A stretch of 64,000 nucleotides of DNA from Bacteroidales bacterium (GCA_049315385.1 JBMOKG010000008.1:27788-91787), one strand, 5' to 3'. Positions 42,111 through 64,000 are shown, counted from the stretch's first letter. Numbers and translations: made by a program. Notes: generated from the letters alone by a model not told the origin.

Positions 42111-44102
42111 TTAAACTTTTGTTTTTACAACTTTATTCCCTTCGACCAGTTTTTTTAAATCTTTCATACTTATATTTCCAATTGCCATTTGTTGCAATTG
42201 TCCCATAATCCAATTGGTTTCGTTTTCTTTAATTTCGTTAAAACGAATCGTAGAAAATTTTTCTCTCAGAAAAGGAATATGTTTCGTTATGTCTTCTTTA
42301 CTAATTTCTTTAAATTTAATACTTATCAGAACAGATTCCATATCCATTTTAGGATGCACAAAAATTACCGGCATCATCTTTTTAGCCAGTTTCAAATCGT
42401 ATTTATTCTTAAGTAGAAATGAAAATAAATCATAAATCATTTCATAACTAAACTCACGACCTTTTTTGTAATGCCCTTCAACATATTTAATGAAGTGACC
42501 AAAGAAAGTAGCAGTCAAAACAGGATTAATTTTTAATTCTTTAACGATTTTTTCAATTAAAGGGAAAAGATTCTTCTTAAATATATAAGTGTAAGTATCT
42601 TCGGGAACATTCCATGCTTTAAGTTGCTCATAACGGGTGATTACTTCAGTTGGAATATTTTTCTTTAACGATTCAATATAAGTTTCTTCCAATGGAATCG
42701 GTTTGGAGTCAGTATCCGGATACATTCGATCAGCACCAGGTAAAACACGTTCGAAAATAGTTGTACCATCAGCAAAAGATTTACGGGTTTCTTGAGGAAC
42801 GCCTTTAAAAGCCATATTACAACGTTCTTCTATAGTATCTATAGCAGTTTTAATATCTGCTTCAGGTCCCCAGAATATGATTTGAGCATCAGCATCACAA
42901 GCTTTGAAAATTTTACGGATGTAACTCTGGTCATCGCCTGCAATTAATGCATTCAATTCTTCTGAATGCGTCATATTTGGAATATCAATACATGCAATAA
43001 CTTTTAAACGTTCGCTTATTTCATTTGCAAACATCTTATCAGGTTGAGTAAAATAAGATAAAATACCTTTAAATTTAGGCAAATTAACTGCATAAATTTT
43101 ATATCCTGCTGTTTTAGCAGCTTTTATAGCATCACAAGGGAATTGCAAAGCATAGAAATCAAGTTCTTTAACTTCCATTTCCCAAGCAGGTTTATCTTTA
43201 ATTCTTTGTTGTAAAGTTTCACGAATTTGCAATAATGCCCATTGACGAAAACATTCATTATGTGTCAATTCAGGTATCCATTTAGTATGTGCAACACCTT
43301 TAATTTCAACACGTGTACCACCTTTACAACTAACATTCACATCCTGTCGGCCAGCACCAATGCCTGTTCTGACTTTATTTGTAGAACGATTGAGAAAGCG
43401 AATGTAATTGCAGGCTTCCATTACTTCATCAGGATTCATCATCTCAGGATAGGTTACTGTTTCTATCAAAGGCATGCCCAATCTGTCTGTTCTGTAAATT
43501 CTTGTATGCCCAATATCTGAAATTTCACGACAAGAATCCTCTTCAATACTAAGTTGTATTAATCGGATTTTTTTATTTTTCAAAGGGATTTCACCTTCTA
43601 CACCAATAATAGCAGTTCGCTGAAATCCTGCAGGAATACTTCCATCAAGATATTGTTTACGGGTAATATGTACTTCTCCGACAAGACTTAATTTTGATAA
43701 CATCGAAATTTCAATTGCAATACCCAATGCTTCCCGATTTATAGGAAATGGAGGTGTATCATCTACATCATAAGTACAGGTAGTTTCGTTTTTAATACGA
43801 TAAATAATTTCTTTTCTGGTTTTGAACTCCATTAATGCAGTTCCGTCATATTCTCCTAATTCGCTAAGTGTTGGCCTCATGTGACGCACAACTTCAGCAT
43901 CCCAAACTTTTGCTTTTTGAAAAATACCTGCAGGACAATGACAAAATAATTTTTCTTTGGTTAAAAGTTGTTGATGAACTTCCAACCCAGACATAAATCC
44001 AATTTTTGTATATGTTTCCTGATTAGCTTCTTTACGAGAAACATAACCGACTTTACGTTTTGATTCTTCGTAATTTTGTTTAGGATCGAAATGATTATCC
44101 AT
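42111..44102 (-). CDS. GatE-like (archaeal-type Glu-tRNA(Gln) amidotransferase subunit E family) protein
   Basis: 663 aa. N-terminal GLEVHQQLLTKEKLFCHCP, MRPTLSELGEYDGTA, DDTPPFPINREAL and RKQYLDGSIPAGFQRT match my recollection of GatE rather than the ~480-aa GatB. No GatD-like gene is adjacent. Confidence 0.65.
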   Translation of the reverse strand: MDNHFDPKQNYEESKRKVGYVSRKEANQETYTKIGFMSGLEVHQQLLTKEKLFCHCPAGIFQKAKVWDAEVVRHMRPTLSELGEYDGTALMEFKTRKEIIYRIKNETTCTYDVDDTPPFPINREALGIAIEISMLSKLSLVGEVHITRKQYLDGSIPAGFQRTAIIGVEGEIPLKNKKIRLIQLSIEEDSCREISDIGHTRIYRTDRLGMPLIETVTYPEMMNPDEVMEACNYIRFLNRSTNKVRTGIGAGRQDVNVSCKGGTRVEIKGVAHTKWIPELTHNECFRQWALLQIRETLQQRIKDKPAWEMEVKELDFYALQFPCDAIKAAKTAGYKIYAVNLPKFKGILSYFTQPDKMFANEISERLKVIACIDIPNMTHSEELNALIAGDDQSYIRKIFKACDADAQIIFWGPEADIKTAIDTIEERCNMAFKGVPQETRKSFADGTTIFERVLPGADRMYPDTDSKPIPLEETYIESLKKNIPTEVITRYEQLKAWNVPEDTYTYIFKKNLFPLIEKIVKELKINPVLTATFFGHFIKYVEGHYKKGREFSYEMIYDLFSFLLKNKYDLKLAKKMMPVIFVHPKMDMESVLISIKFKEISKEDITKHIPFLREKFSTIRFNEIKENETNWIMGQLQQMAIGNISMKDLKKLVEGNKVVKTKV

Positions 44103-50247: not shown

Positions 50248-53200
50248 TTATTGTAAAATCAATTTTTCTGTATGAGATTTCCCATTCGAAGTATTCACAA
50301 TATTTACAAAATAAACACCTTTTGAAAAAGATGATAAGTCAATATTTGTCAACATTTGATTTGTTCTTTGTTTTAATAACATATTTCCCACCAATGAATA
50401 GATTTTTATTTCTGCATCCGTTGTATTTTCAATTGCTATACTTAGTTTCCCATTTGTAGGATTTGGGAATAATCTGAAAGAGTTTGAATTATTTTCAATA
50501 ATTTTAGTTGTATAAATCTGAAGATCGTTGGAATCACGTGGTATCAAAACATAACCAGATAAGTACGGAGACGTTGCATCTATTTGACTTACAATACCTG
50601 TAATATTAAATGCTACTGTCGGTGCTGATTTTGCCTGTAGATTACAATTAGAAAACAATCTTAAAGTTACAGTATCAATGCCTTTCAATACAAGCACAGA
50701 AAATGTAGTAAAACCAGAAGTTGTTGGCCATCCACTCAAATAAGTAAGATTTTCCATTTTTACAAATTGAGATTCTACATTTTCAGTTAATGTAGCAACA
50801 ACTACTGGAATATGTAGACTATTTCCAGAAGATATGACAACGATAGAATCAGGAACTATTTCTGTAAGTCCGCTAACCTGAGCAATTTTACCTATTACTC
50901 TCAGTGAATCTCCTTCAACTGGGGTATAACTTAAGGTTGATGTTTTATAAACATTTATTCCTGCAGTAGCATCAAGTAAATAGAAATTCAAACCACCGGA
51001 AACTGCAGATTGTTTATAGTTCAATCCATGCACAACTCCGTTAAGTTTACAATTTACTGCAATTGAATCAGCAACACCATTACTGTTTACTGTTTTAACC
51101 TGAGCAATAGTATAAGAAACAGGTAATTTTTTTGTAGTAAAGATAATTTCGTTACCATAACCAATTCCTGCTGCAGAAATCCCATAAGCTCTTACATAGT
51201 AATTAGTGTTATTGGTTAAATTATTCAAAGTGCTGCTATACGTCCCTGTACTTCCTGAAACAACTGAAAAAGAATCTGTTATGGTTGGAATTGTATGCGT
51301 TGCCCAGCAAATACCTCTTGAGATTATAGTATCACCACCGTCACTTATTATAGTCCCTGAAACAGATGCAGAGGTGAAAGTAATTGCTGTTGCAGCAGCA
51401 GTTGTGACAACTGGCACAACTGCTGCTGCAGTTGTTTGAAAAGTTGAATCATTTCCATAAAAAGTACCCAGTGAATTAATACAATAGGCTCTATAATGGA
51501 AAACTGTATTAGCTGTTAGATTGGGGAGATTTACCGAATAAACACCAGTTGTTCCGCTTGATGTTTTTATAGAATCTATAATTGTTGGATTGGGATTAGT
51601 ACTATAACAAATTCCTCTCGAAGTAATGATACGGCCACCATCTGTTGGGATATTCCCAGAACAAACCGCAGTGTGTAACGTAATACTGGATGAAGTTCCT
51701 GTTATAATACTTGGGTTTCCATAATTTATTATTAAATCAGATATGTTTCTTGGCAAAATCTGATAGCCTGATGTGTAAGGAGAGGTTGCATCACTCTGAT
51801 TTACCAATCCTTTTATAGAAAAACTAACTGTTGCAGTTGGTGCTGCAGTTCCTTGAAGGTTACAATTGCTGTAAATTCTCAAAACAACAGTATCCATACC
51901 TTTAACAGTATAAACTGTTCTTGTATTACCTGCGGTAGTAGGCCAACCACTTAAGTAATATAAGTTATCAATTGTAACTAATTTTGATTCTACTGAATCA
52001 TAAGGTAAATTTACTGTTACTGGATTAAACAATGTATTTGCTGATGATAATACTGTCATTGAATCAGGTACGATTTCAATTAATCCATTTACTTGTGCAG
52101 TTTTTCCAATGATTCTTACTTTATCACCCTCTAGAACTGAATAGCCTAAATTTGTTGTTTTGTAAACATTTATACCCGCAGTTGAATCTAAAATAAAAAA
52201 GTTTAAACCAGTAGTTGCGTAATTCAAGCCATGAACAACACCTGTTAATTTGCAGTTCACATTTAATGAATCAGCTACACCAAGACTGTTAACTCCTTTT
52301 ACCTGTAAAATCGAATAAGATGGAATAAATATTTTTGATGTAAAACTTAATTGGTTTCCATAACCACATCCTATAGCATTGGTTGCAAAAGCTTTTACAT
52401 AATAAGTTGTACTTGGTAGTAGATTACTAATCAATGTAGAATAATTTGCTGTTGTTCCTGTTTGAAACCTAACTGTATCAAGGATAGTAGGATTTGAAAG
52501 TATGCTATAACAAACACCTTTAGTTAAAATAGTGCTTCCTCCATCATTGACAACCTTTGATACAACATTTGCAGTAAAAGTAGAAATATTATTAACTGAA
52601 TCTGTAGTTAGTATTGGAATAACAGCTGTTGCTGAAGTAAAAAATACTGAATCAGCACCATAAGCAACACCTGTAGAATTTCTTGCATAAGCTCTGTAGT
52701 GATAATTAGTTCCGAAACTTAGACCAATGAGGTTGCTACTGAAACTTCCAGTAGTACCTGTTTCAAGTGTATGACTTGCTGATGTATCCGGATTTATAAT
52801 TGTTGCGTAACAGATTCCTCTCGCTGTAATTGTCGTGCCTCCGGTAGCTGTTATATTTCCACTACATACGGCAGTTGTCATAGTAATATTTGTAGCAGAA
52901 GAAGTAAGAACTGTTGGTGAAGAATAATTAATTGACAGATCACTTAAATACCTTGGGTAAAGTGTATAAGATTGAAGATAAGGTGAAGAAGCATCATTTT
53001 GAGAAACAAGACCTGTAATATTGAAATTTGTTGTTGGTGCAGCGGTTCCCTGTAAATTACAACTGGAATGAATTATAATTATTAAACTATCTGCTCCATT
53101 TAATGTATAAACTGTTTTTGTAGTTCCGGCAGTAGTAGGCCATCCACTTAAGTAAATCAGATTATTAAGTTTAACCAGTTTTGATTCAATAGAATCTGTA

Positions 53201-56055
53201 AGACTATTAACTATCGAAGGAATTTGTAAGGTGTTTAAAGTAGATATTAAAACTATAGAATCAGGTATGATTTCAATTAATCCATTTACCTGTGCAATTT
53301 TACCAATGACTCTAACTTTATTACCTTCTGTAGGTGTATAATTTAATGAAGATGTTTTATAAACATTGATTCCGGATGTGGAATCTAAAATATAGAAATT
53401 ATAACCTGAGGTAGCATAATTCAATCCATGGACTATTCCTGTTAATTTACAATTTATATTTAATGAATCTGATACTCCAAGACTATTAATTCCTTTAACT
53501 TTTTGAATTGAATAAGCTGGAATAAATAATTTAGTGGTGAAGCTAATCATATTTCCATAAGCAGTTCCGGCCGAATTTGTAGCAAAAGCTTTTGTATAAT
53601 AAATTGTATTTGATAAAAGATTTCCTATCGTATCAATATAAGCACCAGTTGTTCCCGTTTGATAATTAATTGAATCAAGAATGGTTGGATTATTGATTGT
53701 ACTCCAGCAAACTCCTCTTGAAATAACAGTAGCACCTCCATCATTTATAACTTTTGAAGCTATTGTTGCATTATAAATACCAATATTAAAAACCGAGTCT
53801 GTTGTAAGTAAGGGTGTAACGGGATTAGCAGCAGTTGTAAATATTGAATCAGCGCCATAAGCAATACCTGTTGTATTTTTTGCATAAGCTCTGAAATGAT
53901 ATAAAGTCGCTGTTGAAAGTCCGCTTAAAGAACTATTAAAAACTCCTGTAGTACCGGTTTCTGTAGTATGGATTGAAGAAGTATCAGGATTGGCTGATGT
54001 TGAATAACAAATTCCACGAGCAGTTATAGCAGATCCTCCGTTAGCTGTGACATTACCACTACAGATAGCAGTAGTCATTGATATATTGGTTGCTGTTGTA
54101 GTAATAACTGTTGGAATTGTATAGTTTATTGAAAAATCTGACAAATATCTAGGATACACCATATATCCCTGCAAATAAGGTGAAGAGGCATCGCTTTGAG
54201 TAGCAATCCCGGTAATATTAAACGAAGCTGTTGGTGCTGTTGTACCCTGAATGTTACAGGAAGAATAGATAATAATACTAACGCTATCAGTACCATGTAA
54301 AGCATAAACAGTTTTTGTTGTACCCACTGTAGTCGGCCATCCGCTCAAATACGTCAGGTTGTTTATTTTAACTAATTTAGATTCTACAGTATCTGAAAGA
54401 TTATTAATAACAATAGGATTCTGTAAAGTGATTCCTGATGATATTTTAACGATTGAATCAGGAGCGATATAAATAAGTCCATTACTTTGTTGTGTTTTCC
54501 CGATAACTCTTAAAGAATCGCCTTCAGCAACAGTGTATCCTAATGAAGAAGTTTTATATACAAATATACCTTCATTATTATTCATCATATAAAAAGAATA
54601 TCCTGTAGTAATATAATTTAAACCGTGAACAACACCAGACAATTTACAGTTAACAGCAAGTGAATCAGCTACACCAGTTATTGGGTTAATCGAATGTATT
54701 TGAGAAATTGAATAAGTAGGAATAAATATCAATGTAGCAAAACTCACATCATTGCCATAACTTGTACCTACTGAATTTGTTGCAAAAGCTCTAATATGAT
54801 ATGTAGTGTTTTGAAGTAGATTTGAAATAGTATAAGTGTATATTCCAGTAGTGCCACTTACAATATTTACACTGTCAGTTAAAGTTGGATTAGAAATTGT
54901 GCTTCTACAAAAACCTCTTGAAGTGATAGCAGTACCTCCATCATTTATTATATTACCAGAAAAAGTTGCAGACCAATTAGAAATATTTGAAACTGAATTG
55001 GTTGTTATAAGAGGCAAAACAGCTGATGTGGCAGTTGAAAATACAGAATCTGCACCATAAGCAGTTCCTGAACCATTGGTTGCATAAGCTCTGTAATGAT
55101 ATGTTTTCCCCATTAATAATCCTGAAAGATTACTTGAAAAACTACCTAAACTACCTGTTTCTGAAGTGAATAAATTCGTAAGACCTGGATTAGCAAGTGT
55201 ATCATAACAAATTCCTCTTGCTGTAATTGCAGAACCACCGTTAGTAATAATATTACCGTTAACTGTTGCAAAATTTGTAGTAATATTGGATGGTGTTCCG
55301 GTTGATAAAATTGGAGTCGTTAAAAAGCCCACAGCATTGTACCATGTGTTTGCAATTCTTATTTCATCAACATTTAAATAAGTTGTATTTGTAGAAGTTC
55401 CTTGTCTTAATGCAAAAGAATATGCAGAATCGAGATCTGTTGAAGTAATGTCTGTTGCTTTTATTGTAGGTAAACCTTCCTCTGTAATACCAGGATTTAT
55501 AAATAATGATACACTATCATTTGCCGTGCCACTAACAAACTTATATTTTATTACTAATAAAAAAGTAGAATCAATAGAATATGTAGCAGCAGAATAAACT
55601 GTATTAGCAGATGTACTTCCTTTCAGAATTCCAAATGAAATTAATGAAGGATTCGTAGTGCTTTTTTTCACATAAACTCTTGCAGCAAAATTTGTTGTAT
55701 TTCTTAAAAAGTGCATAAAATATTCACCGGTAGTTATTGCCGAGTCAATTTTTACTAATGCTGATGCATAAATTGTACCACTATTTTGGCCTGTAAATGT
55801 CCGGTTAATGTCTTGGCCAGTATTCATTAAATACGCCTTATTTCCAACAGATACAGGGTATTGAGGATAGTTTAACGATCCGTTTTTTATAAGTACAGAA
55901 TTTACACCTGTACTATGAATTTGCCAGCCGTGTGTACTTAAAGTATCTCCAGCAGTATAATCAAAGTGTTCATTCAGAAATACTGTTTGAGCATGAACAG
56001 TAAATGTAAACATGGCCATAAATACAACTAAAATTGTAAAAATAATTTTTTTCAT
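50248..56055 (-). CDS. giant (1935 aa) repetitive T9SS-secreted surface protein
   Basis: Signal peptide ending VHAQT, a unique ~225-aa N-domain, four ~400-aa tandem super-repeats, and a T9SS CTD (FRLFPNPTNGKLSIAI...GVYFVNIV...KLILQ). Confidence 0.9.
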   Translation of the reverse strand: MKKIIFTILVVFMAMFTFTVHAQTVFLNEHFDYTAGDTLSTHGWQIHSTGVNSVLIKNGSLNYPQYPVSVGNKAYLMNTGQDINRTFTGQNSGTIYASALVKIDSAITTGEYFMHFLRNTTNFAARVYVKKSTTNPSLISFGILKGSTSANTVYSAATYSIDSTFLLVIKYKFVSGTANDSVSLFINPGITEEGLPTIKATDITSTDLDSAYSFALRQGTSTNTTYLNVDEIRIANTWYNAVGFLTTPILSTGTPSNITTNFATVNGNIITNGGSAITARGICYDTLANPGLTNLFTSETGSLGSFSSNLSGLLMGKTYHYRAYATNGSGTAYGADSVFSTATSAVLPLITTNSVSNISNWSATFSGNIINDGGTAITSRGFCRSTISNPTLTDSVNIVSGTTGIYTYTISNLLQNTTYHIRAFATNSVGTSYGNDVSFATLIFIPTYSISQIHSINPITGVADSLAVNCKLSGVVHGLNYITTGYSFYMMNNNEGIFVYKTSSLGYTVAEGDSLRVIGKTQQSNGLIYIAPDSIVKISSGITLQNPIVINNLSDTVESKLVKINNLTYLSGWPTTVGTTKTVYALHGTDSVSIIIYSSCNIQGTTAPTASFNITGIATQSDASSPYLQGYMVYPRYLSDFSINYTIPTVITTTATNISMTTAICSGNVTANGGSAITARGICYSTSANPDTSSIHTTETGTTGVFNSSLSGLSTATLYHFRAYAKNTTGIAYGADSIFTTAANPVTPLLTTDSVFNIGIYNATIASKVINDGGATVISRGVCWSTINNPTILDSINYQTGTTGAYIDTIGNLLSNTIYYTKAFATNSAGTAYGNMISFTTKLFIPAYSIQKVKGINSLGVSDSLNINCKLTGIVHGLNYATSGYNFYILDSTSGINVYKTSSLNYTPTEGNKVRVIGKIAQVNGLIEIIPDSIVLISTLNTLQIPSIVNSLTDSIESKLVKLNNLIYLSGWPTTAGTTKTVYTLNGADSLIIIIHSSCNLQGTAAPTTNFNITGLVSQNDASSPYLQSYTLYPRYLSDLSINYSSPTVLTSSATNITMTTAVCSGNITATGGTTITARGICYATIINPDTSASHTLETGTTGSFSSNLIGLSFGTNYHYRAYARNSTGVAYGADSVFFTSATAVIPILTTDSVNNISTFTANVVSKVVNDGGSTILTKGVCYSILSNPTILDTVRFQTGTTANYSTLISNLLPSTTYYVKAFATNAIGCGYGNQLSFTSKIFIPSYSILQVKGVNSLGVADSLNVNCKLTGVVHGLNYATTGLNFFILDSTAGINVYKTTNLGYSVLEGDKVRIIGKTAQVNGLIEIVPDSMTVLSSANTLFNPVTVNLPYDSVESKLVTIDNLYYLSGWPTTAGNTRTVYTVKGMDTVVLRIYSNCNLQGTAAPTATVSFSIKGLVNQSDATSPYTSGYQILPRNISDLIINYGNPSIITGTSSSITLHTAVCSGNIPTDGGRIITSRGICYSTNPNPTIIDSIKTSSGTTGVYSVNLPNLTANTVFHYRAYCINSLGTFYGNDSTFQTTAAAVVPVVTTAAATAITFTSASVSGTIISDGGDTIISRGICWATHTIPTITDSFSVVSGSTGTYSSTLNNLTNNTNYYVRAYGISAAGIGYGNEIIFTTKKLPVSYTIAQVKTVNSNGVADSIAVNCKLNGVVHGLNYKQSAVSGGLNFYLLDATAGINVYKTSTLSYTPVEGDSLRVIGKIAQVSGLTEIVPDSIVVISSGNSLHIPVVVATLTENVESQFVKMENLTYLSGWPTTSGFTTFSVLVLKGIDTVTLRLFSNCNLQAKSAPTVAFNITGIVSQIDATSPYLSGYVLIPRDSNDLQIYTTKIIENNSNSFRLFPNPTNGKLSIAIENTTDAEIKIYSLVGNMLLKQRTNQMLTNIDLSSFSKGVYFVNIVNTSNGKSHTEKLILQ
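50509..55317. repeat. four ~1.2-kb tandem coding repeats inside the giant gene
   Basis: Protein periodicity is 399-403 aa: the Y(S/T)I landmark falls at aa 448, 848, 1247 and 1648. Approximate unit boundaries are 55317/54117/52920/51717/50509. Confidence 0.85.
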
Positions 56056-56584: not shown

Positions 56585-57274
56585 ATGGTAATCCTAATTT
56601 TTATAGCATTTATAGTGGCATGTTTCACAGTGGATGCGATCGTTCGGTATAGTAGAAAAAATAAATCAAGAATTTCTGCTTTAGTTTCAGATTCATTAAA
56701 TGTTTTTAATGAAAATTCAGTAACAATTCCAAAAGGTATTTATTTCGACAAGTCTCATACCTGGGCATTTATGGAAAAGAATGGCTTCGTTAAAATCGGA
56801 ATTGATGATTTCTTTCTTCATATTACAGGTCCTTTGAGTCGTTTAATAATGAAAAATCAAGGAGATAAAATTCAAAAAGGTGAAGCTATATTAACAATTG
56901 TTCAAAATGGGAAACAGTTGATTATTAATGCTCCTATTTCAGGAACCGTTAAATCCAGGAACATTCAACTTGAAGCAGATCCCTCAATTTTAAATCTATC
57001 CCCTTATAATGATGGATGGTTTTATACAATTGAGCCTTCAGATTGGTTAAGAGATACACAATTTCTATTTATGGCAGATAAATATAAGGAATGGCTGAAA
57101 AATGAATTCGCAAGACTTAAAGATTTTCTTGCCATAAACATTCAAACCAGAAATGCAGAGTTTGTTCCAGTAATGCTTCAGGATGGAGGAGAACTAAAAG
57201 ACAATGTCCTTGAAGATTTTGGACCTGAAGTATGGGAGGAATTTCAAATAAAATTCATAAACACTTCCAAATAA
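56585..57274 (+). CDS. membrane-anchored GcvH-like (glycine-cleavage H-fold) protein, paralogue 1
   Basis: N-terminal TM helix followed by RYSRKNKSR. GcvH motifs SHTWAF, KIGIDDF, APISGTV and SPYNDGWFYTIEPSD. A ~70-aa C-terminal extension is shared with paralogue 2. Confidence 0.75.
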   Translation: MVILIFIAFIVACFTVDAIVRYSRKNKSRISALVSDSLNVFNENSVTIPKGIYFDKSHTWAFMEKNGFVKIGIDDFFLHITGPLSRLIMKNQGDKIQKGEAILTIVQNGKQLIINAPISGTVKSRNIQLEADPSILNLSPYNDGWFYTIEPSDWLRDTQFLFMADKYKEWLKNEFARLKDFLAINIQTRNAEFVPVMLQDGGELKDNVLEDFGPEVWEEFQIKFINTSK

Positions 57275-57318
57275 ATACAATTCAAACTCGGTCTTATAAA
57301 TATTAAATACTTGTAATT

Positions 57319-58185
57319 ATGAGTTTAAATAGAAGAGAGTTTTTAAAAACTGCTGGAGTTGTTGGGATTTCACTTACAGTAGGTAATAGTTTTGCTGCTG
57401 TAAAAAATAAAGAGGCAGATGTTGAATTCCGAGGAATGCTCTATGATTCTTCGAGATGTGTCGGTTGTCAGACTTGTGAAAATGTTTGCGCAGAGGCTAA
57501 CAAATTATCACCACCTGTAGGCGAACCTAAAACCGGGATTATCAGAAAAACAGATGAAAAGCATAATACAACCGTAAATTGTTATAAAACATCAAAAGGT
57601 GATGTTTTTATAAAAACTCAGTGCATGCATTGCAATGAACCTGCCTGTGCAGCAGCTTGTCTGACCAAAGCAATGTATAAAACAAAGGAAGGACCAGTTA
57701 TCTGGCGAGCTGATAAATGTATGGGATGTCGCTATTGTATGGTTTCATGCCCTTTTGATATACCAAAATTTGAATACCATAGTGCAAATCCAAAGATTCA
57801 AAAGTGTTCAATGTGTTTTGATAAATTAAAAAAAGGAGGAATTCCATTTTGTGCTGAAAATTGTCCAGCAGAAGCCATTAAATTCGGAACACGTCGTGAA
57901 TTAATCAAAGAAGCAAGGAAAAGAATTGTTGAAAACCCCGGAACTTATATTGATGAAATTTATGGAGAACATACAGCTGGAGGAACTGGATTTTTATATA
58001 TTTCTTCAGTTCCATTCAATGAACTTGGATTGAATAATAAACTTCAAAATAAATCCTATCCTGAATTATCGAAAGGATTTTTATTTAGCGTACCAACAGT
58101 ATTCGTGCTTTTACCGCCAATTTTATTAGGAATTTATGAAGCCACTAAAAAAAAACAACTCCATGAAAACGATGAAAATATATAA
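57319..58185 (+). CDS. Tat-exported HybA/NrfC/DsrO-like 4x[4Fe-4S] ferredoxin subunit
   Basis: Twin-arginine signal NRREFLKTAG. Four Cys clusters (CVGCQTCENVC, CMHCNEPACAAAC, CMGCRYCMVSCP, CSMC...CAENCP). C-terminal TM anchor. Confidence 0.85.
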   Translation: MSLNRREFLKTAGVVGISLTVGNSFAAVKNKEADVEFRGMLYDSSRCVGCQTCENVCAEANKLSPPVGEPKTGIIRKTDEKHNTTVNCYKTSKGDVFIKTQCMHCNEPACAAACLTKAMYKTKEGPVIWRADKCMGCRYCMVSCPFDIPKFEYHSANPKIQKCSMCFDKLKKGGIPFCAENCPAEAIKFGTRRELIKEARKRIVENPGTYIDEIYGEHTAGGTGFLYISSVPFNELGLNNKLQNKSYPELSKGFLFSVPTVFVLLPPILLGIYEATKKKQLHENDENI

Positions 58186-59407
58186 TCAGGAATTACCACT
58201 TTCTCCAGATAATAGAAATCTTTCTACTTTTAAGTTTATAATGAGTGAACTCAAACCAAAGGGTAAATTGATAACTCCGTTTAATTTAATTTCAATTCCA
58301 ATAATTATTTTAGGTGTAGTGTTGATTGTTATTCGTTTTATTAATGGTATAGGTTCTGTTACAAATCTAACACAGGAAGTACCATGGGGATTATGGATTG
58401 GATTTGATGTAGTTACAGGAGTAGCATTTGCTGGTGGAGCTTATGTTCTGACATTTATGGTTTATATACTAAATATGCAGAAATACCATTCTATTGTGAG
58501 GGTTACGGTTTTAAATGGATTTCTGGCCTATGTATTTTATGCAGGAGCTTTACTTCTGGATTTGGGTCGCCCGTGGAATGTAATCAATCCTATCATCGGA
58601 AATAGTTTTGGAACTAGTTCTGTTTTATTTCTGGTTGCTTGGCATTTTTTACTATATATGATAGCAGAATTAATTGAGTTTTCTCCTGCAATAGCTGAAT
58701 GGCTGGGTGCAAAACGAATTCACAAATTTCTTTCGGGAATGACAATTGCAGCAGTCATTTTTGGAATAACGTTATCTACTTTGCATCAATCAGGATTGGG
58801 AGCATTGTATCTGATGGCTAAAGATAAAATCCATCCTTTATGGTATTCTGAATTTATACCTGTTCTGTTTTTAATATCAAGTGTTTTTGCAGGCCTATCG
58901 ATGGTAATATTCGAAGGGTCCATTAGCCATAAAGTGTTCTTTAATCAAATAAGTAAAAAAAACCATGAAGCTCAGAAAGGAATTGTTTTGGGACTGGCTA
59001 AAATATGTGCAGCAGCAATGTTTGCATACTTTTTTATGCAATTACTGGTTTTCATTCATGGAAAACGCTGGGACTTATTAAATACATCAATGGGTTATTG
59101 GTATTTACTGGAAATGTTTGGTTTTGTACTTCTTCCGATGATGCTTTATGTGTACAGCTATAAAATGAAGAATATTACATTGGTCAAAGTTGCGGCTATT
59201 ATAACTATGCTAGGAATTATTTTAAACCGTTTAAATGTTACTGTTATTGGATTTCGTTGGGATGCTGCCATTCGGTATTTTCCAACATGGATGGAATTTG
59301 TTGTCACATTAACTGTTATTTTTACTGAAATCTGGATATTCAGATGGGTTATTAACCGTATGCCTGTTTTAAGAGATTCCCTGGAATGGGTCAATGAAAA
59401 AAATTAA
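58136..59407 (+). CDS. NrfD/HybB/PsrC-like polytopic quinone-interacting membrane subunit
   Basis: About 10 TM helices directly after the FeS subunit. The track ORF overlaps the upstream gene by 50 nt. The probable true start is the ATG at 58241 (MSELKPKGKLITPFNLISIPIIILG), which resembles the HybB N-terminus. Confidence 0.8.
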   Translation: MKPLKKNNSMKTMKIYNQELPLSPDNRNLSTFKFIMSELKPKGKLITPFNLISIPIIILGVVLIVIRFINGIGSVTNLTQEVPWGLWIGFDVVTGVAFAGGAYVLTFMVYILNMQKYHSIVRVTVLNGFLAYVFYAGALLLDLGRPWNVINPIIGNSFGTSSVLFLVAWHFLLYMIAELIEFSPAIAEWLGAKRIHKFLSGMTIAAVIFGITLSTLHQSGLGALYLMAKDKIHPLWYSEFIPVLFLISSVFAGLSMVIFEGSISHKVFFNQISKKNHEAQKGIVLGLAKICAAAMFAYFFMQLLVFIHGKRWDLLNTSMGYWYLLEMFGFVLLPMMLYVYSYKMKNITLVKVAAIITMLGIILNRLNVTVIGFRWDAAIRYFPTWMEFVVTLTVIFTEIWIFRWVINRMPVLRDSLEWVNEKN

Positions 59408-59453
59408 ATTAATAAGCATTTTGAATTTATGGAAAACACAAAAATAAGAAAAC

Positions 59454-60173
59454 ATGGAAGGATTTAATTATTATAATATATTCGACACCAAGGGCATTGA
59501 ATATATTGCTATTATCGCATTTTTTATTATTTTGATACCTTTTTGGATTATATTGAATAAAAGCGAAGAAATAAAGAACAAAATTAAAGAAGTATTTAGC
59601 ATTTTGACATTTGATACTTTAAAAATTCCTCAAGGTATTTTTTATAGCAAAAATCATACTTGGGCATATTTGGAAAAATCAGGTGATGCTTCTGTTGGTA
59701 TAGACGACTTTCTTATACATTCAACTGGAGATGTTAAATTACATATTCTTAAAAATTCTAATGATCTCATTTCAAAGGGAGACTTGATTACAGAAATAAT
59801 AAAAGATGATAAAATTCTTAAAATTTTTTCACCAATATCTGGGAAAATTGTAAAAAGCAATGTTCAACTTGATAATGAACCAACATTGTTAAATATTGAT
59901 CCTTATGGTAAAGGCTGGATTTATAAAATAAAACCTTCAAAATGGATCGATGAAACTCAAACTTTATTTTTAGCTGAGGATGCAACAAATTGGTCAAAAT
60001 CGGAAATGCAACGGTTTAAAGATTTTATGGCATTGTCAACTAAAAAATATTCAAATGAAAATAATTTAGCGATACTTCAGGATGGAGGTGAATTAGTTGA
60101 TCATCCGCTTTCGGAACTTTCTCGAAATGTATGGCTGGATTTTCAGGAAAATTTTCTAAAACCTAAAGACTAA
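59454..60173 (+). CDS. membrane-anchored GcvH-like protein, paralogue 2
   Basis: Same architecture as 56585-57274: TM helix, NHTWAY, VGIDDF, SPISGKI, DPYGKGWIYKIKPS, then LQDGGELVDHPL...WLDFQ. Confidence 0.75.
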   Translation: MEGFNYYNIFDTKGIEYIAIIAFFIILIPFWIILNKSEEIKNKIKEVFSILTFDTLKIPQGIFYSKNHTWAYLEKSGDASVGIDDFLIHSTGDVKLHILKNSNDLISKGDLITEIIKDDKILKIFSPISGKIVKSNVQLDNEPTLLNIDPYGKGWIYKIKPSKWIDETQTLFLAEDATNWSKSEMQRFKDFMALSTKKYSNENNLAILQDGGELVDHPLSELSRNVWLDFQENFLKPKD

Positions 60174-60367: not shown

Positions 60368-62026
60368 ATGGCAATAAAATTCAGAGATTTACTTGAAAGT
60401 CCATTACTTAAAAAGTATTTAAAAATCCGGTCCTCAATATATGGTCGTGTTGTCCTAATCATCGTTATTTTTTCGATATTTCTTTTTGTTTCATTTGGAA
60501 TAATCTTCCGATCAGTCAACGAAGAATATATGAAAAATCTCATTCATCAACGTGGCACTAATGCAGCTCTAATGGTCAGAAGTGCATTATATCAGTCAAT
60601 GTTGGAAAATAATAAAACCTCTCTTCAGACTACACTGGATGTTATAAACAGAATGTCAGGAATTGATGAAGTAAATTTATATAATAGTAATGAAAATCTT
60701 GTTTATTCGTCTTTTTCTTCAAACACTTCAGGACATAGTAATCCCAATTGCTTAGAATGTCATAAGAGTATTAAATCTATATTACCCGAAAAAGATAATT
60801 TTTCAAAAATCATAGAGATTAATAGTGAATGTGAAATGAATCAAAATGACAATGCTCACAGGCATTTACTAATCAATTCACCTATTCAGAACGAGAAATC
60901 ATGTTATACCAGTTCGTGTCATGCACATCCACAAAGCGAAAAAATTTTAGGTTCACTTGTAATAAAAATCCCTTTAGAAAACCTTGATACAACGCTTGAG
61001 AAGTCATCAATGGATTTCTATCTATTAGCTACACTAACAACACTATTATTGTTGGGCTTTCTTATATTTTTCACCAGTAAAAAGATTAAAAATCCTTTAA
61101 ATGCATTAATAAATGCAAGTGATGCTGTTTCGAAAGGAGACAATAATATGAGACTTGAAATAAAACCTAATCAGCTGGATGACATGAGAATGGTTTCATT
61201 AGCATTTAATCACATGCTGGATAATTTACAGTCTGCTAATATAGAATTACAAAACTGGTCCCAACAACTTGAATACAAAGTCAGGATAAAATCTGAAGAA
61301 TTAGGTCAAGCTCAAAATGAATTAATAAATATTGAAAAGATAGCTTCTTTAGGGAAATTATCCCTTTCTGTTGCTCATGAAATCAACAATCCTCTATCAG
61401 GAATTTTAATTTACACAAAATTAGTTCAAAAGCAATTGCTAAATCAGGAATTAGAAGCAGGTAAAAAGGAAATGGTTTTGAAACATTTGAAAATGATAGA
61501 GAATGAAACAAAACGTTGCGGTGATATCGTAAAAGGTTTATTGGATTTCTCAAGAAAAGATCAAAACTTTTTCGAAGATAAACATTTGCATGAAGTGCTA
61601 AGAGAAACAAGTGATTTGATGAATCACTCAATGAAAATTGCCAAGATATTTTTCACAACTGATTTTTTAGCAAATAATGATCTTGTTTATTGTAGTCCCA
61701 ATCAGATTAAACAAGCTTGTATTGCTATTTTAGTAAATGCATCAGAAGCTGTCACTGAAAATGGTGAAGTCTTCTTTAAAACATACAATCCGGACGAAAA
61801 TCAAATTTGTATAGAAATCACAGATAATGGTTCAGGAATAAATGAAGAAGATATTCCTCATATTTTCGAGCCTTTCTTTTCTACAAAATATAATACCAGA
61901 GGAACTGGTTTGGGATTAGCAATCGTTCATGGAATTATACAAAGTCATAACGGCAAAATCGAATTAAAATCAGATGTAGGAAAAGGAACGAGAATTTCAA
62001 TTTTATTACCTTTAAAACGAAAATAA
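60368..62026 (+). CDS. sensor histidine kinase with extracytoplasmic haem-c-motif domain
   Basis: Two TM helices flank a ~180-aa loop containing CLECH (60749-60763) and CYTSSCH (60902-60922). A HAMP-like linker follows, then the H-box SVAHEINNPL and ATPase boxes DNGSGI and GTGLGLAI. Confidence 0.85.
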   Translation: MAIKFRDLLESPLLKKYLKIRSSIYGRVVLIIVIFSIFLFVSFGIIFRSVNEEYMKNLIHQRGTNAALMVRSALYQSMLENNKTSLQTTLDVINRMSGIDEVNLYNSNENLVYSSFSSNTSGHSNPNCLECHKSIKSILPEKDNFSKIIEINSECEMNQNDNAHRHLLINSPIQNEKSCYTSSCHAHPQSEKILGSLVIKIPLENLDTTLEKSSMDFYLLATLTTLLLLGFLIFFTSKKIKNPLNALINASDAVSKGDNNMRLEIKPNQLDDMRMVSLAFNHMLDNLQSANIELQNWSQQLEYKVRIKSEELGQAQNELINIEKIASLGKLSLSVAHEINNPLSGILIYTKLVQKQLLNQELEAGKKEMVLKHLKMIENETKRCGDIVKGLLDFSRKDQNFFEDKHLHEVLRETSDLMNHSMKIAKIFFTTDFLANNDLVYCSPNQIKQACIAILVNASEAVTENGEVFFKTYNPDENQICIEITDNGSGINEEDIPHIFEPFFSTKYNTRGTGLGLAIVHGIIQSHNGKIELKSDVGKGTRISILLPLKRK

Positions 62027-62038
62027 AGAGAACATATA

Positions 62039-63391
62039 ATGAGTAAAAAAATTTCAATTTTAATCGTTGATGATGAAGATTCAGTAAGAGACTCTCTTTT
62101 CAATTGGTTTATCGAAGATGGCTATCGTGTTGAATGTGCAGAGAATGCAAAGATAGCATTGTCAAAACTTGAATTTGAAAATTTTGACATTATTCTAGCA
62201 GATATAAAAATGCCGGGTATGGATGGCCTTGAAATGTTAAGAAGAATAAAATCATTAAAAAATGATTCTATTGTAATTGTTATGACAGCATTTGCCACGG
62301 TAGATACGGCTGTTCAGGCATTAAAAGACGGTGCTTTTGATTATATAACAAAACCTTTTGATCCTGATGATTTGTCTCATCTAATTCGAAATGCCACTAA
62401 ACAAATTTCATTGCTGAAAGAAAACGAAAATCTTAAAGAAAGAGTCATTACACTTGAGAATGTCGAAGATTTGGTTGGAAAAAGCGAAGGAATGAAAAAA
62501 GTACTTAAAGAGGTTGAAAGTGTAGCACAATCAAATACTTCCGTTATTATTACAGGAGAAAGCGGCACAGGAAAAGAATTGATAGCTAAAGCTATTCACG
62601 CCAATTCTTCACGGAAATTCTTTCCGTTGGTAAGTGTTCATTGTGGAGCATTGTCAGATAGTTTACTGGAAAGTGAGTTGTTTGGTCATGAAAAAGGTGC
62701 ATTCACTGGAGCAATGTACAATCGTAAAGGCCGATTTGAAATGGCCGATAGTGGAACTATTTTTCTAGATGAAATTGCAACTATTTCTACTAAGATGCAG
62801 GTTGAATTATTGCGTGTTATTGAAACAAAATCTTTTATCAGAGTAGGTGGAAATAAAGAAATAAATTCTGACTTCAGGGTAATTTGCGCTACAAACCGGA
62901 ATTTAAAACAAATGGTTGAAGAAGGTAGTTTTCGGGAAGATTTATTTTACCGTTTAAATGTCGTAAATATTCACGTACCACCTCTTCGTGAAAGAAGAGA
63001 AGACATTCCTTTACTGACAGAATATTTCATTAAAAAGTATTGCACTTCGATGAGTAAACCTGGAATACAGATTGATTCTTCTGCCTTGAAACGTTTGGAA
63101 GAATTTGATTTCCCAGGTAATATACGAGAACTTGAAAATATGATAGAACGTGCTATAGTCATTGGTAATGGAAAAAAAATCACATTAAAAGATCTCCCTT
63201 TTGAAAAAAGCAGCACACATAGTTCTTTAGAAAGCCTTGATGAACAGGAGAAAATACATATAGCTCAAATTTTAATTAAATATGATTGGAATATTTCACG
63301 GACAGCAAAAGCATTACAGGTTGACAGAGTAACTCTTTATAATAAAATAAAGAAATACAACTTAAAATCCTCGGAATCTAAACAATCCTAA
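62039..63391 (+). CDS. sigma-54-dependent response regulator (NtrC family)
   Basis: REC domain (DIILADIKMPGMDG), AAA+ Walker A GESGTGKE, the sigma-54 contact loop GAFTGA, and a C-terminal Fis-type HTH. Confidence 0.93.
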   Translation: MSKKISILIVDDEDSVRDSLFNWFIEDGYRVECAENAKIALSKLEFENFDIILADIKMPGMDGLEMLRRIKSLKNDSIVIVMTAFATVDTAVQALKDGAFDYITKPFDPDDLSHLIRNATKQISLLKENENLKERVITLENVEDLVGKSEGMKKVLKEVESVAQSNTSVIITGESGTGKELIAKAIHANSSRKFFPLVSVHCGALSDSLLESELFGHEKGAFTGAMYNRKGRFEMADSGTIFLDEIATISTKMQVELLRVIETKSFIRVGGNKEINSDFRVICATNRNLKQMVEEGSFREDLFYRLNVVNIHVPPLRERREDIPLLTEYFIKKYCTSMSKPGIQIDSSALKRLEEFDFPGNIRELENMIERAIVIGNGKKITLKDLPFEKSSTHSSLESLDEQEKIHIAQILIKYDWNISRTAKALQVDRVTLYNKIKKYNLKSSESKQS

Positions 63392-63511: not shown

Positions 63512-64000
63512 ATGGATTTAAATAATATCACATTAATAACTTTCGGTTACTTCGATAACGATTTTCTTAACAAAATTGCAGAAAATATTCATCGCGAATT
63601 TCACATCTCTATACAAATTAAAGAAGCACATATCGATATAAGTGAGTTTTATAATCCTGCTCGACGCCAATATGATGCCAATAAACTTTTATACCTGATT
63701 GAAAAAGATTATTCATCAGATGAAGCAAAGACCATTGGATTATTTAATATCGATTTATTTATACCTATTTTCACATATATTTTTGGTCAGGCTTTTTTAA
63801 GTGGAAAAACAGGAATTGCTTCTGCTTTTAGATTAAGCAATGAACGCTATGGAATTAAACCTGACAAAGCTCTTTATTTAGAACGTGTAAGTAAAGAAAT
63901 TATACATGAACTTGGCCATACTTTTGGGTTGATTCATTGTTCTATTCCTGATTGTGTCATGAGATCAGGAACTTATGTCGAAGATATTGATCAAAAAGAT
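63512..64000 (+). CDS. archaemetzincin-family zinc metallopeptidase (3' end outside window)
   Basis: Hand translation from the ATG at 63512 gives MDLNNITLITFGY ... HELGHTFGLIHCSIPDCVM, i.e. the HExxHxxGxxxC...C.M archaemetzincin signature. The frame stays open to the window end. Confidence 0.75.
   Translation, partial: MDLNNITLITFGYFDNDFLNKIAENIHREFHISIQIKEAHIDISEFYNPARRQYDANKLLYLIEKDYSSDEAKTIGLFNIDLFIPIFTYIFGQAFLSGKTGIASAFRLSNERYGIKPDKALYLERVSKEIIHELGHTFGLIHCSIPDCVMRSGTYVEDIDQKD

Follow-up and report, generated by a model that had tools for sequence, protein, structure and literature searches.

Membrane-anchored GcvH-fold proteins with a displaced hairpin lysine are encoded in a conserved seven-gene operon of Bacteroidota

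A stretch of 64,000 nt of DNA from a Bacteroidales bacterium (GCA_049315385.1 JBMOKG010000008.1:27788-91787), read on one strand, numbered from its first letter and hereafter called the window, encodes two paralogous proteins that resemble GcvH, the H protein of the glycine cleavage system, but in which the lysine of the lipoyl hairpin lies one residue away from the position that is lipoylated in GcvH. This locus raises the question of whether the two proteins are carriers of a displaced cofactor, decayed copies of GcvH, parts of a membrane enzyme, or something else. Here, we find that paralogue 1 and paralogue 2 are not glycine-cleavage H proteins and that they belong to a large and hitherto undescribed Bacteroidota family of proteins that cross the membrane once. 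We also propose, with moderate confidence, that both are GcvH-fold interaction modules that lack a cofactor and that would act as adaptors coupling a redox module to signaling.

Both paralogues significantly match the GCV_H domain model from Pfam (PF01597), with 73.8 bits for paralogue 1 and 79.2 bits for paralogue 2, and both remain under the cutoffs of the curated GcvH models, scoring 60.9 and 74.4 bits on TIGR00527 (cutoff 115.85) and 72.8 and 78.2 bits on NF002270 (cutoff 117), respectively. The two proteins are 41% identical to each other across 201 aa (amino acids), including a C-terminal tail that follows the GcvH fold. AlphaFold models of paralogues 1 and 2 have a mean predicted local distance difference test (pLDDT) score of 85.0 and 84.4, respectively, and in Foldseek comparisons the modeled domains superpose on solved GcvH structures with a target TM-score (template modeling score) of 0.89–0.95 and a root-mean-square deviation of 1.1–1.8 Å over approximately 125–130 columns.

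The hairpin region of paralogue 1 reads ...LTIVQNGKQLIINAPISGT, which includes K110, and that of paralogue 2 reads ...TEIIKDDKILKIFSPISGK, which includes K120. An initial annotation, made from the sequence without database searches, had reported these peptide strings and the codons of both lysines exactly (the codons are listed in table 1), and had counted the lysine seven residues before the proline of the (A/S)PxSG motif instead of the canonical eight. This count is upheld by anchor spacing, by profile alignment, and by both structure models. The distance from the glycine of the KG(E/D) motif to the proline of (A/S)PxSG is 18 residues in GcvH from T. thermophilus, pea, E. coli, and T. maritima, and it is 18 residues in both paralogues as well; counted from the same glycine, the GcvH lysine is at position +10, whereas the paralogues have G109 or D119 at +10 and their lysine at +11. 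When the family profile was aligned with the GcvH profile using hhalign (probability 99.8), the hairpin was ungapped and the family glycine lay opposite the canonical lysine. In the AlphaFold models, a two-residue turn (table 1) connects strands 101–107 and 110–115 in paralogue 1 and strands 111–117 and 120–125 in paralogue 2, and K110 and K120 are each predicted to be the first residue of the returning strand and not the tip of the turn. An insertion or deletion that restores the canonical register was considered and rejected, because no gap appears in the profile-profile alignment, in the anchor spacing, or in either AlphaFold model. A pairing of lysine with lysine was obtained once, in a pairwise HMMER alignment to E. 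coli GcvH, at the cost of two compensating gaps. Structure-based alignment to GcvH, which the initial annotation had suggested as a check, thus confirms that the lysine is off register and lends no support to such an indel. According to PMC6270654, where the mutagenesis of a lipoyl domain by Wallis and Perham (1994) is cited, a lysine is lipoylated only if it occupies the very tip of the turn.

The architecture of the family is also distinct. Most orthologues of paralogue 1 have a length of approximately 555–590 aa and consist of a signal peptide, a divergent PstS-type periplasmic domain, a membrane helix, the GcvH fold, and the tail (e.g., the orthologues at L035 2714-4408 and L027 8993-10711), and paralogue 1 of the window represents a lineage that lost the PstS-like periplasmic domain. 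Because a signal peptide and a PstS-like domain precede the membrane helix in most orthologues, the GcvH fold faces the cytoplasm, as had been suggested earlier from the basic residues that follow the helix; the predicted topology is that of a single-pass membrane protein with its N-terminus outside, its C-terminus inside, and a cytoplasmic GcvH fold. The tail, predicted to be helical in the AlphaFold model, extends for about 55 aa beyond the end of canonical GcvH, over residues 175–229 of paralogue 1 and 185–239 of paralogue 2, and is thus shorter than the length of about 70 aa first given to it. It matches no Pfam family, and Foldseek found no fold match in the PDB past the GcvH part. We considered the possibility that the tail is a known or independent domain and rejected it: a profile search with the tail alone gave only C-terminal fragments of the same family, all of them truncated or frameshifted gene calls of 52–104 aa that begin at internal Met residues. 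The tail is, therefore, not an independent domain, and the same search revealed no common annotated domain in it, so that the earlier description of the tail as specific to this family stands.

A protein that has lost the canonical lysine and scores under the cutoffs of the GcvH equivalog models could be a decayed GcvH copy, in which the displaced lysine is present by chance and the tail is unconstrained. The size and conservation of the family refute this explanation, to which we give next to no credence. In a word-indexed search, 243 homologues were detectable for paralogue 1 and 1458 for paralogue 2, which are named "glycine cleavage system H protein" or hypothetical in their sources, and an exhaustive profile search resulted in 504 clusters (50% identity, E value of 1e-30 or less). 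We scanned the contigs of one genome per species for the family and kept 80 loci; at least 593 stretches in these contigs encode a family relative, and those of the 80 loci that are taxonomically named all belong to Bacteroidota (Bacteroidales, Prolixibacteraceae, Draconibacterium, and others). Among 121 close homologues of paralogue 1, K110 is conserved in all 121 and G109 in 120, and among 150 cluster representatives the turn glycine is present in 149 and is followed by Lys in 148 and by Arg in 2. Almost invariant in these 150 representatives are the Gly-Lys hairpin, with the consensus I-Q-N-G-K-Q-L, together with W154, and, within the tail, the motifs E-x-x-R-L-K-D-F, L-Q-D-G-G-E-L, and W-x-x-F-Q, including residues Q199, D200, G201, G202, W217, F220, and Q221. 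Paralogue 2 retains K120 in 115 of 120 homologues, and its membrane helix and N-terminus rank among its best-conserved parts, which suggests specific packing in the membrane. Neither paralogue has a conserved Cys. Hairpin, tail, and membrane helix are, thus, strongly conserved throughout the clusters and species genomes surveyed, the open reading frames (ORFs) are intact, and, as described later, gene order is conserved.

If the proteins are not decayed, the lysine might still be a modification site of an unusual kind. The off-register lysine of paralogue 1 and of most paralogue-2 proteins would in this case be lipoylated, octanoylated, or acylated in another way by a dedicated enzyme encoded elsewhere, and the protein would serve as a noncanonical, membrane-tethered swinging arm that carries a cofactor for the NrfD/iron–sulfur (FeS) module or for the histidine kinase encoded in the same operon. 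Among 532 family sequences, the residue seven before the proline is Lys in 521, Arg in 5, Asn in 4, His in 1, and Ser in 1, and the residue eight before the proline, which is the canonical site, is Gly in 479, Asp in 25, Asn in 20, and Lys in only 3. This high frequency of the lysine and of the glycine preceding it is what a swinging arm would lead one to expect; the remainder of the GcvH fold is intact in the family, including the (A/S)PxSG and HxW motifs, and there is a precedent in LbpA proteins, which are GcvH-like carriers that need their own ligases (PMC6067878).

The natural variants argue against such an arm. Nine paralogue-2 sequences that have Arg, Asn, His, or Ser in place of the lysine are full length, and the five of them that were checked keep 29 of 29 other invariant residues. 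In paralogue 1, Gly-Arg is found in two lineages of the long form, with Arg recurring in independent assemblies: one of these lineages comprises three distinct sequences from different assemblies, all of which read SKGRLLNFYSP, and the other is present on five contigs. Sequencing errors as the source of the Lys-to-Arg variants were ruled out because Arg occurs in distinct sequences and on several contigs. Arginine preserves the positive charge at this position, but the amide-linked attachment of a lipoyl, octanoyl, or biotinyl group to it is impossible. Whereas the target lysine of a lipoylated protein is expected to be invariant and irreplaceable, the residue is replaced in 11 of the 532 sequences here. 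Moreover, in the clade that includes paralogue 2 of the window (63% identity or more, n = 23) the turn glycine has been lost in 23 of 23 sequences and the lysine in 3 of 23, with the turn and the next residue reading DNK, DDK, GDK, and similar, and K120 is, therefore, only weakly constrained. The residue three before the lysine is Gln, and no acidic residue is found there.

Genomic and structural context point in the same direction. Neither a lipoate-protein ligase nor an octanoyltransferase nor a lipoyl synthase was found among the 30 ORFs that encode at least 100 aa in the 16–50 kb part of the window, and no gene for a lipoate enzyme is among the conserved neighbors in 82 related loci, which contrasts with the ligases that are linked to LbpA genes. 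The position of the lysine at the start of the strand after the turn, instead of at its tip, is likewise unfavorable. Finally, NrfD subunits contain no redox cofactor through which electrons could cross the membrane and reach a dithiol in the cytoplasm (PMC8076601). It is, therefore, difficult to see how electrons would travel from the FeS protein in the periplasm to a lipoyl group in the cytoplasm, and the swinging arm is weakened further. Taken together, we consider a swinging arm improbable. More specifically, the Gly-Lys hairpin of paralogue 1 might carry an out-of-register lipoyl or other acyl group added by an unlinked dedicated enzyme, with the Arg lineages representing secondary losses; we regard this as quite improbable. 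If true, it would define a new class of lipoyl-type protein, a membrane-tethered arm that links an NrfD-type quinone module and a kinase with heme-type motifs to cytoplasmic chemistry.

The pattern is most simply explained by a conserved need for a basic side chain beside a tight glycine turn, in which case K110 and K120 would be interaction residues and not obligatory modification sites. The natural Arg, Asn, His, and Ser variants make a new type of modification unlikely, and modification in the Lys-bearing majority of the family is possible. Of the three fates that the initial annotation had put forward for the lysine, namely no modification, a different modification, or a dedicated ligase, the first is now favored over the other two, given the variants and the lack of a linked ligase.

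What the two proteins might interact with is suggested by their gene neighborhood. Among the 82 related loci, which are nonredundant, the only conserved neighborhood consists of paralogue 1, paralogue 2, a pair of genes resembling HmcB and HmcC, a sensor histidine kinase, a sigma-54-dependent regulator, and an archaemetzincin of 176–179 aa. The gene order is paralogue 1, HmcB-like, HmcC-like, paralogue 2, kinase, sigma-54 regulator, and archaemetzincin. All seven genes are encoded on the plus strand of the window, which they fill from position 56585 to its end (table 1). This conserved operon and its sigma-54 promoter were missed by the initial annotation. In the literature we searched, there is no description of a GcvH-fold family of this kind or of the seven-gene operon, and no GcvH-like protein is linked to NrfD, HmcBC or HybAB, sigma-54, or archaemetzincin.

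The FeS protein, the NrfD protein, and paralogue 2 constitute an insert that is present in approximately 90% of the loci, and paralogue 2 was never seen without the HmcBC-like genes in any of the 82 loci. This strict linkage would also fit an explanation without signaling, in which the paralogues are passive structural subunits, that is, cofactor-less cytoplasmic parts of a quinone oxidoreductase of the HmcBC/HybAB type that would resemble the N-terminal barrel-sandwich domains of NqrA and RnfC, and the kinase and regulator merely control expression. Weak matches to RnfC_N and NQRA_N across the hairpin region and the highly conserved membrane helix of paralogue 2 agree with this explanation. 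However, in about 10% of the loci the cluster is minimal and includes only paralogue 1, the kinase, the regulator, and the archaemetzincin, with the kinase gene directly after that of paralogue 1. Paralogue 1 is, thus, kept with these three partners in at least nine loci that have no FeS protein, no NrfD protein, and no paralogue 2, and in the eight of them that were checked it retains the hairpin in 8 of 8 and the tail motif in 7 of 8 cases. This finding indicates a role that is independent of the redox module, at least for paralogue 1, and leaves the explanation by passive subunits possible but on the unlikely side. The minimal clusters (L006, L008, L011, L020, L022, L023, L028, L031, and L085) come from eight species genomes and one metagenome contig.

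The operon also appears to have a regulatory circuit of its own. A sigma-54-type element precedes paralogue 1 in the window (table 1), and 56 of 81 related loci have the corresponding motif, TGGCAY-N5-TTGA/C, at a distance of 18–107 nt before the start of paralogue 1. The 1.35 Mb of loci contain 92 matches to this motif, 60 of which are directly upstream of paralogue 1, whereas roughly 0.002 matches would be expected by chance in an upstream region of 200 nt. Because the motif is conserved upstream of paralogue 1 far above chance, the operon is probably driven by its own sigma-54 activator.

These observations can be combined in a model in which the GcvH fold was co-opted as a protein-interaction module that needs no cofactor, with the Gly-Lys/Arg hairpin and the tail together predicted to form the binding surface. 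In the quinone-linked HmcBC-like module, paralogue 2 would fill the role of cytoplasmic adaptor, and paralogue 1 would be the adaptor of a core made up of the kinase, the regulator, and the protease, with a PstS-like periplasmic domain attached to it in most species. The homologous domains of the two proteins could then tie signaling to the state of the redox module in the periplasm and membrane, and the output of signaling may feed back on the promoter of the operon. Several points weigh against this model. A basic residue that is kept at 98% next to an invariant glycine also fits a specialized modification site, and the Arg lineages may be secondary losses. In addition, we infer the coupling from gene order and conservation only, and the NrfD and FeS proteins could be an ordinary respiratory module of which the GcvH-fold proteins are passive subunits.

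Table 1. Location of the operon genes, the promoter element, and the regions of the two GcvH-fold paralogues in the window
Feature	Location	Strand	Description
Sigma-54-type -24/-12 promoter element TGGCATGAAAATTGAA	56533..56548	+	37 nt before paralogue-1 start codon
Paralogue 1	56585..57274	+	229 aa; membrane helix, GcvH fold, and tail
Paralogue 1, membrane helix	residues 2-20 (56588-56644)	+	followed by basic stretch RYSRKNKSR
Paralogue 1, GcvH fold	residues 53-173 (56741-57103)	+	
Paralogue 1, hairpin	residues 101-115 (56885-56929)	+	turn N108-G109; K110 codon 56912-56914
Paralogue 1, family-specific tail	residues 174-229 (57104-57271)	+	
HmcB/HybA-like periplasmic ferredoxin	57319..58185	+	twin-arginine translocation (Tat) signal, 16 Cys, C-terminal membrane anchor
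HmcC/HybB-like NrfD-family integral membrane protein	58136..59407	+	PF03916 NrfD
Paralogue 2	59454..60173	+	239 aa; membrane helix, GcvH fold, and tail
Paralogue 2, membrane helix	residues 15-34 (59496-59555)	+	after conserved N-terminus
Paralogue 2, GcvH fold	residues 64-182 (59643-59999)	+	
Paralogue 2, hairpin	residues 111-125 (59784-59828)	+	turn D118-D119; K120 codon 59811-59813
Paralogue 2, tail	residues 183-239 (60000-60170)	+	
Sensor histidine kinase	60368..62026	+	HAMP, HisKA, HATPase
Sigma-54-dependent response regulator	62039..63391	+	receiver, AAA+ sigma-54 activator domain, HTH_8
Archaemetzincin (Peptidase_M54) gene	63512..64000	+	runs past window end; last conserved gene of the cluster

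The ferredoxin ORF matches Fer4_11 with 70.8 bits, its match to TAT_signal is weak (17.2 bits, under the cutoff of 22.7), and its cysteines are arranged in four cluster motifs, enough for four [4Fe-4S] clusters; against NCBIfam it scores 311.5 bits on HmcB (cutoff 420) and 226.9 bits on HybA (cutoff 263). The adjoining ORF matches the NrfD model PF03916 with 54.4 bits (cutoff 25.8) and scores 404.9 bits on HmcC (cutoff 550) and 258.9 bits on HybB (cutoff 450). The pair, therefore, has the features of an NrfD-family subunit with an adjoining Tat-exported ferredoxin of the NrfC type that contains the cysteines for four clusters, and it falls outside HmcB/HmcC and HybA/HybB proper, since the scores are under the equivalog cutoffs and the conserved cluster lacks the partner subunits, namely HmcA and HmcDEF or HybOC. 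The hmcB-like and hmcC-like ORFs share 50 nt (58136-58185), and comparable overlaps are found at related loci, which suggests either translational coupling or a real hmcC start further downstream.

The remaining three genes of the operon encode the kinase, the regulator, and the archaemetzincin. In the periplasmic part of the kinase (residues ~50–215), an H..P.CxxCH motif, a lone Cys, and an SCxxxxCHAH motif are kept in 66 orthologues, a pattern that suggests one or more c-type hemes or a metal site; this sensor domain has no relative in Pfam, NCBIfam, or the PDB. The response regulator is 76–88% identical between related loci. The archaemetzincin follows the regulator in 61 loci, including minimal four-gene loci, and the orthologue in locus L011 reaches 157 bits with the NF033823 model (cutoff 145). 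To our knowledge, this protease family has no assigned role in bacteria.

The window has a G+C content of approximately 31%, and the closest relatives are uncultured Bacteroidales genomes assembled from metagenomes. Directly upstream of the operon and divergent from it, positions 50248-56055 on the minus strand encode a 1935-aa protein that contains long internal repeats, four or five in number, and whose C-terminus resembles, as judged by eye, a type IX secretion sorting domain. A 663-aa GatB-like ORF is located at 42111-44102 on the minus strand, and positions 3–277 of the GatB_N profile are stretched across its residues 38–477, indicating an insertion of approximately 165 aa in the catalytic domain. 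Between positions 18 and 15952, also on the minus strand, a series of short same-strand ORFs resembles the ribosomal-protein S10/spc/alpha operons in its ORF pattern, from which alone the resemblance was drawn, and it would point to a chromosomal context.

The assignment of these proteins has consequences beyond this locus. Databases list family members as "glycine cleavage system protein H", a name that is almost certainly incorrect in several hundred species of Bacteroidota and that would misdirect reconstructions of glycine cleavage, of the reductive glycine pathway, and of lipoate dependence in anaerobic Bacteroidota that are represented by metagenome-assembled genomes. The family is a candidate case of a lipoyl-carrier fold that lacks its carrier lysine and has been put to new use as a cytoplasmic module tethered to the membrane. 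Furthermore, a widespread and uncharacterized seven-gene operon that combines an FeS/NrfD quinone module, a kinase with heme-type motifs, a sigma-54 activator, and an archaemetzincin may offer an entry point to redox sensing or to a new respiratory module in anaerobic Bacteroidota.

How do these proteins compare with known systems? They share with GcvH (PF01597, TIGR00527; PDB 1onl, 3a7l, 1htp) the fold, the length of the hairpin, and the HxW, G-I/L-D/T-D, KGE, (A/S)PxSG, and GW motifs. In contrast to GcvH, the family has Gly, Asp, or Asn at the site of the lipoyl lysine and a basic residue one position later, and while GcvH is soluble, is approximately 125–135 aa long, and works with GcvT, GcvP, and GcvL, family members have an N-terminal membrane anchor, mostly a PstS-like domain, and a tail of ~55 aa. 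Neither gcvT nor gcvP was found in the scanned window ORFs or among the conserved neighbors in the 82 loci. Membership in GcvH proper, thus, fails on all four features tested, that is, lysine position, curated cutoffs, architecture, and genomic partners.

The LbpA proteins of Hdr-like sulfur oxidation are similar to the two paralogues in being GcvH-like, in having a function outside of glycine cleavage, and in often occurring as two paralogues per cluster (PMC6067878). However, LbpA proteins are soluble, have a strictly conserved canonical lysine and two conserved cysteines, and have their genes beside those of dedicated lipoate-protein ligases and beside hdr-like genes (PMC6067878), whereas the paralogues described here have neither the canonical lysine nor conserved cysteines nor linked hdr-like or LplA genes and, therefore, fall outside the LbpA group. 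GcvH-L of Streptococcus and Staphylococcus resembles them as a divergent paralogue with the GcvH fold and a regulatory or stress role, and its structure (PDB 5a35) is a Foldseek match with a target TM-score of 0.82–0.83. GcvH-L is soluble, is lipoylated at the canonical lysine by LplA2, and is encoded together with SirTM and a macrodomain protein; no SirTM or macrodomain neighbors are present at the 82 related loci.

With regard to the neighboring genes, HmcB/HmcC and HybA/HybB are the best matches in NCBIfam, and Desulfovibrio HmcBC and HybAB of E. coli hydrogenase 2 likewise combine a Tat-exported four-cluster ferredoxin with an NrfD-type subunit. The operon described here differs from both in that it lacks the cytochrome HmcA, HmcDEF, and hydrogenase subunits and instead encodes two GcvH-fold membrane proteins, a partnership that is not listed in a review of NrfD proteins (PMC8076601). 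The N-terminal barrel-sandwich domains of NqrA and RnfC (PF05896, PF13375) have a lipoyl-like fold that lacks a cofactor and are located on the cytoplasmic face of redox complexes in the membrane. These domains belong to large soluble subunits and have no tail, whereas the paralogues are single-pass membrane proteins, and the Pfam matches of the paralogues to NQRA_N and RnfC_N, located over the hairpin region, are weak and far under the cutoffs. The closest functional analogy to the two paralogues is nevertheless the cofactor-less N-terminal domain of NqrA and RnfC.

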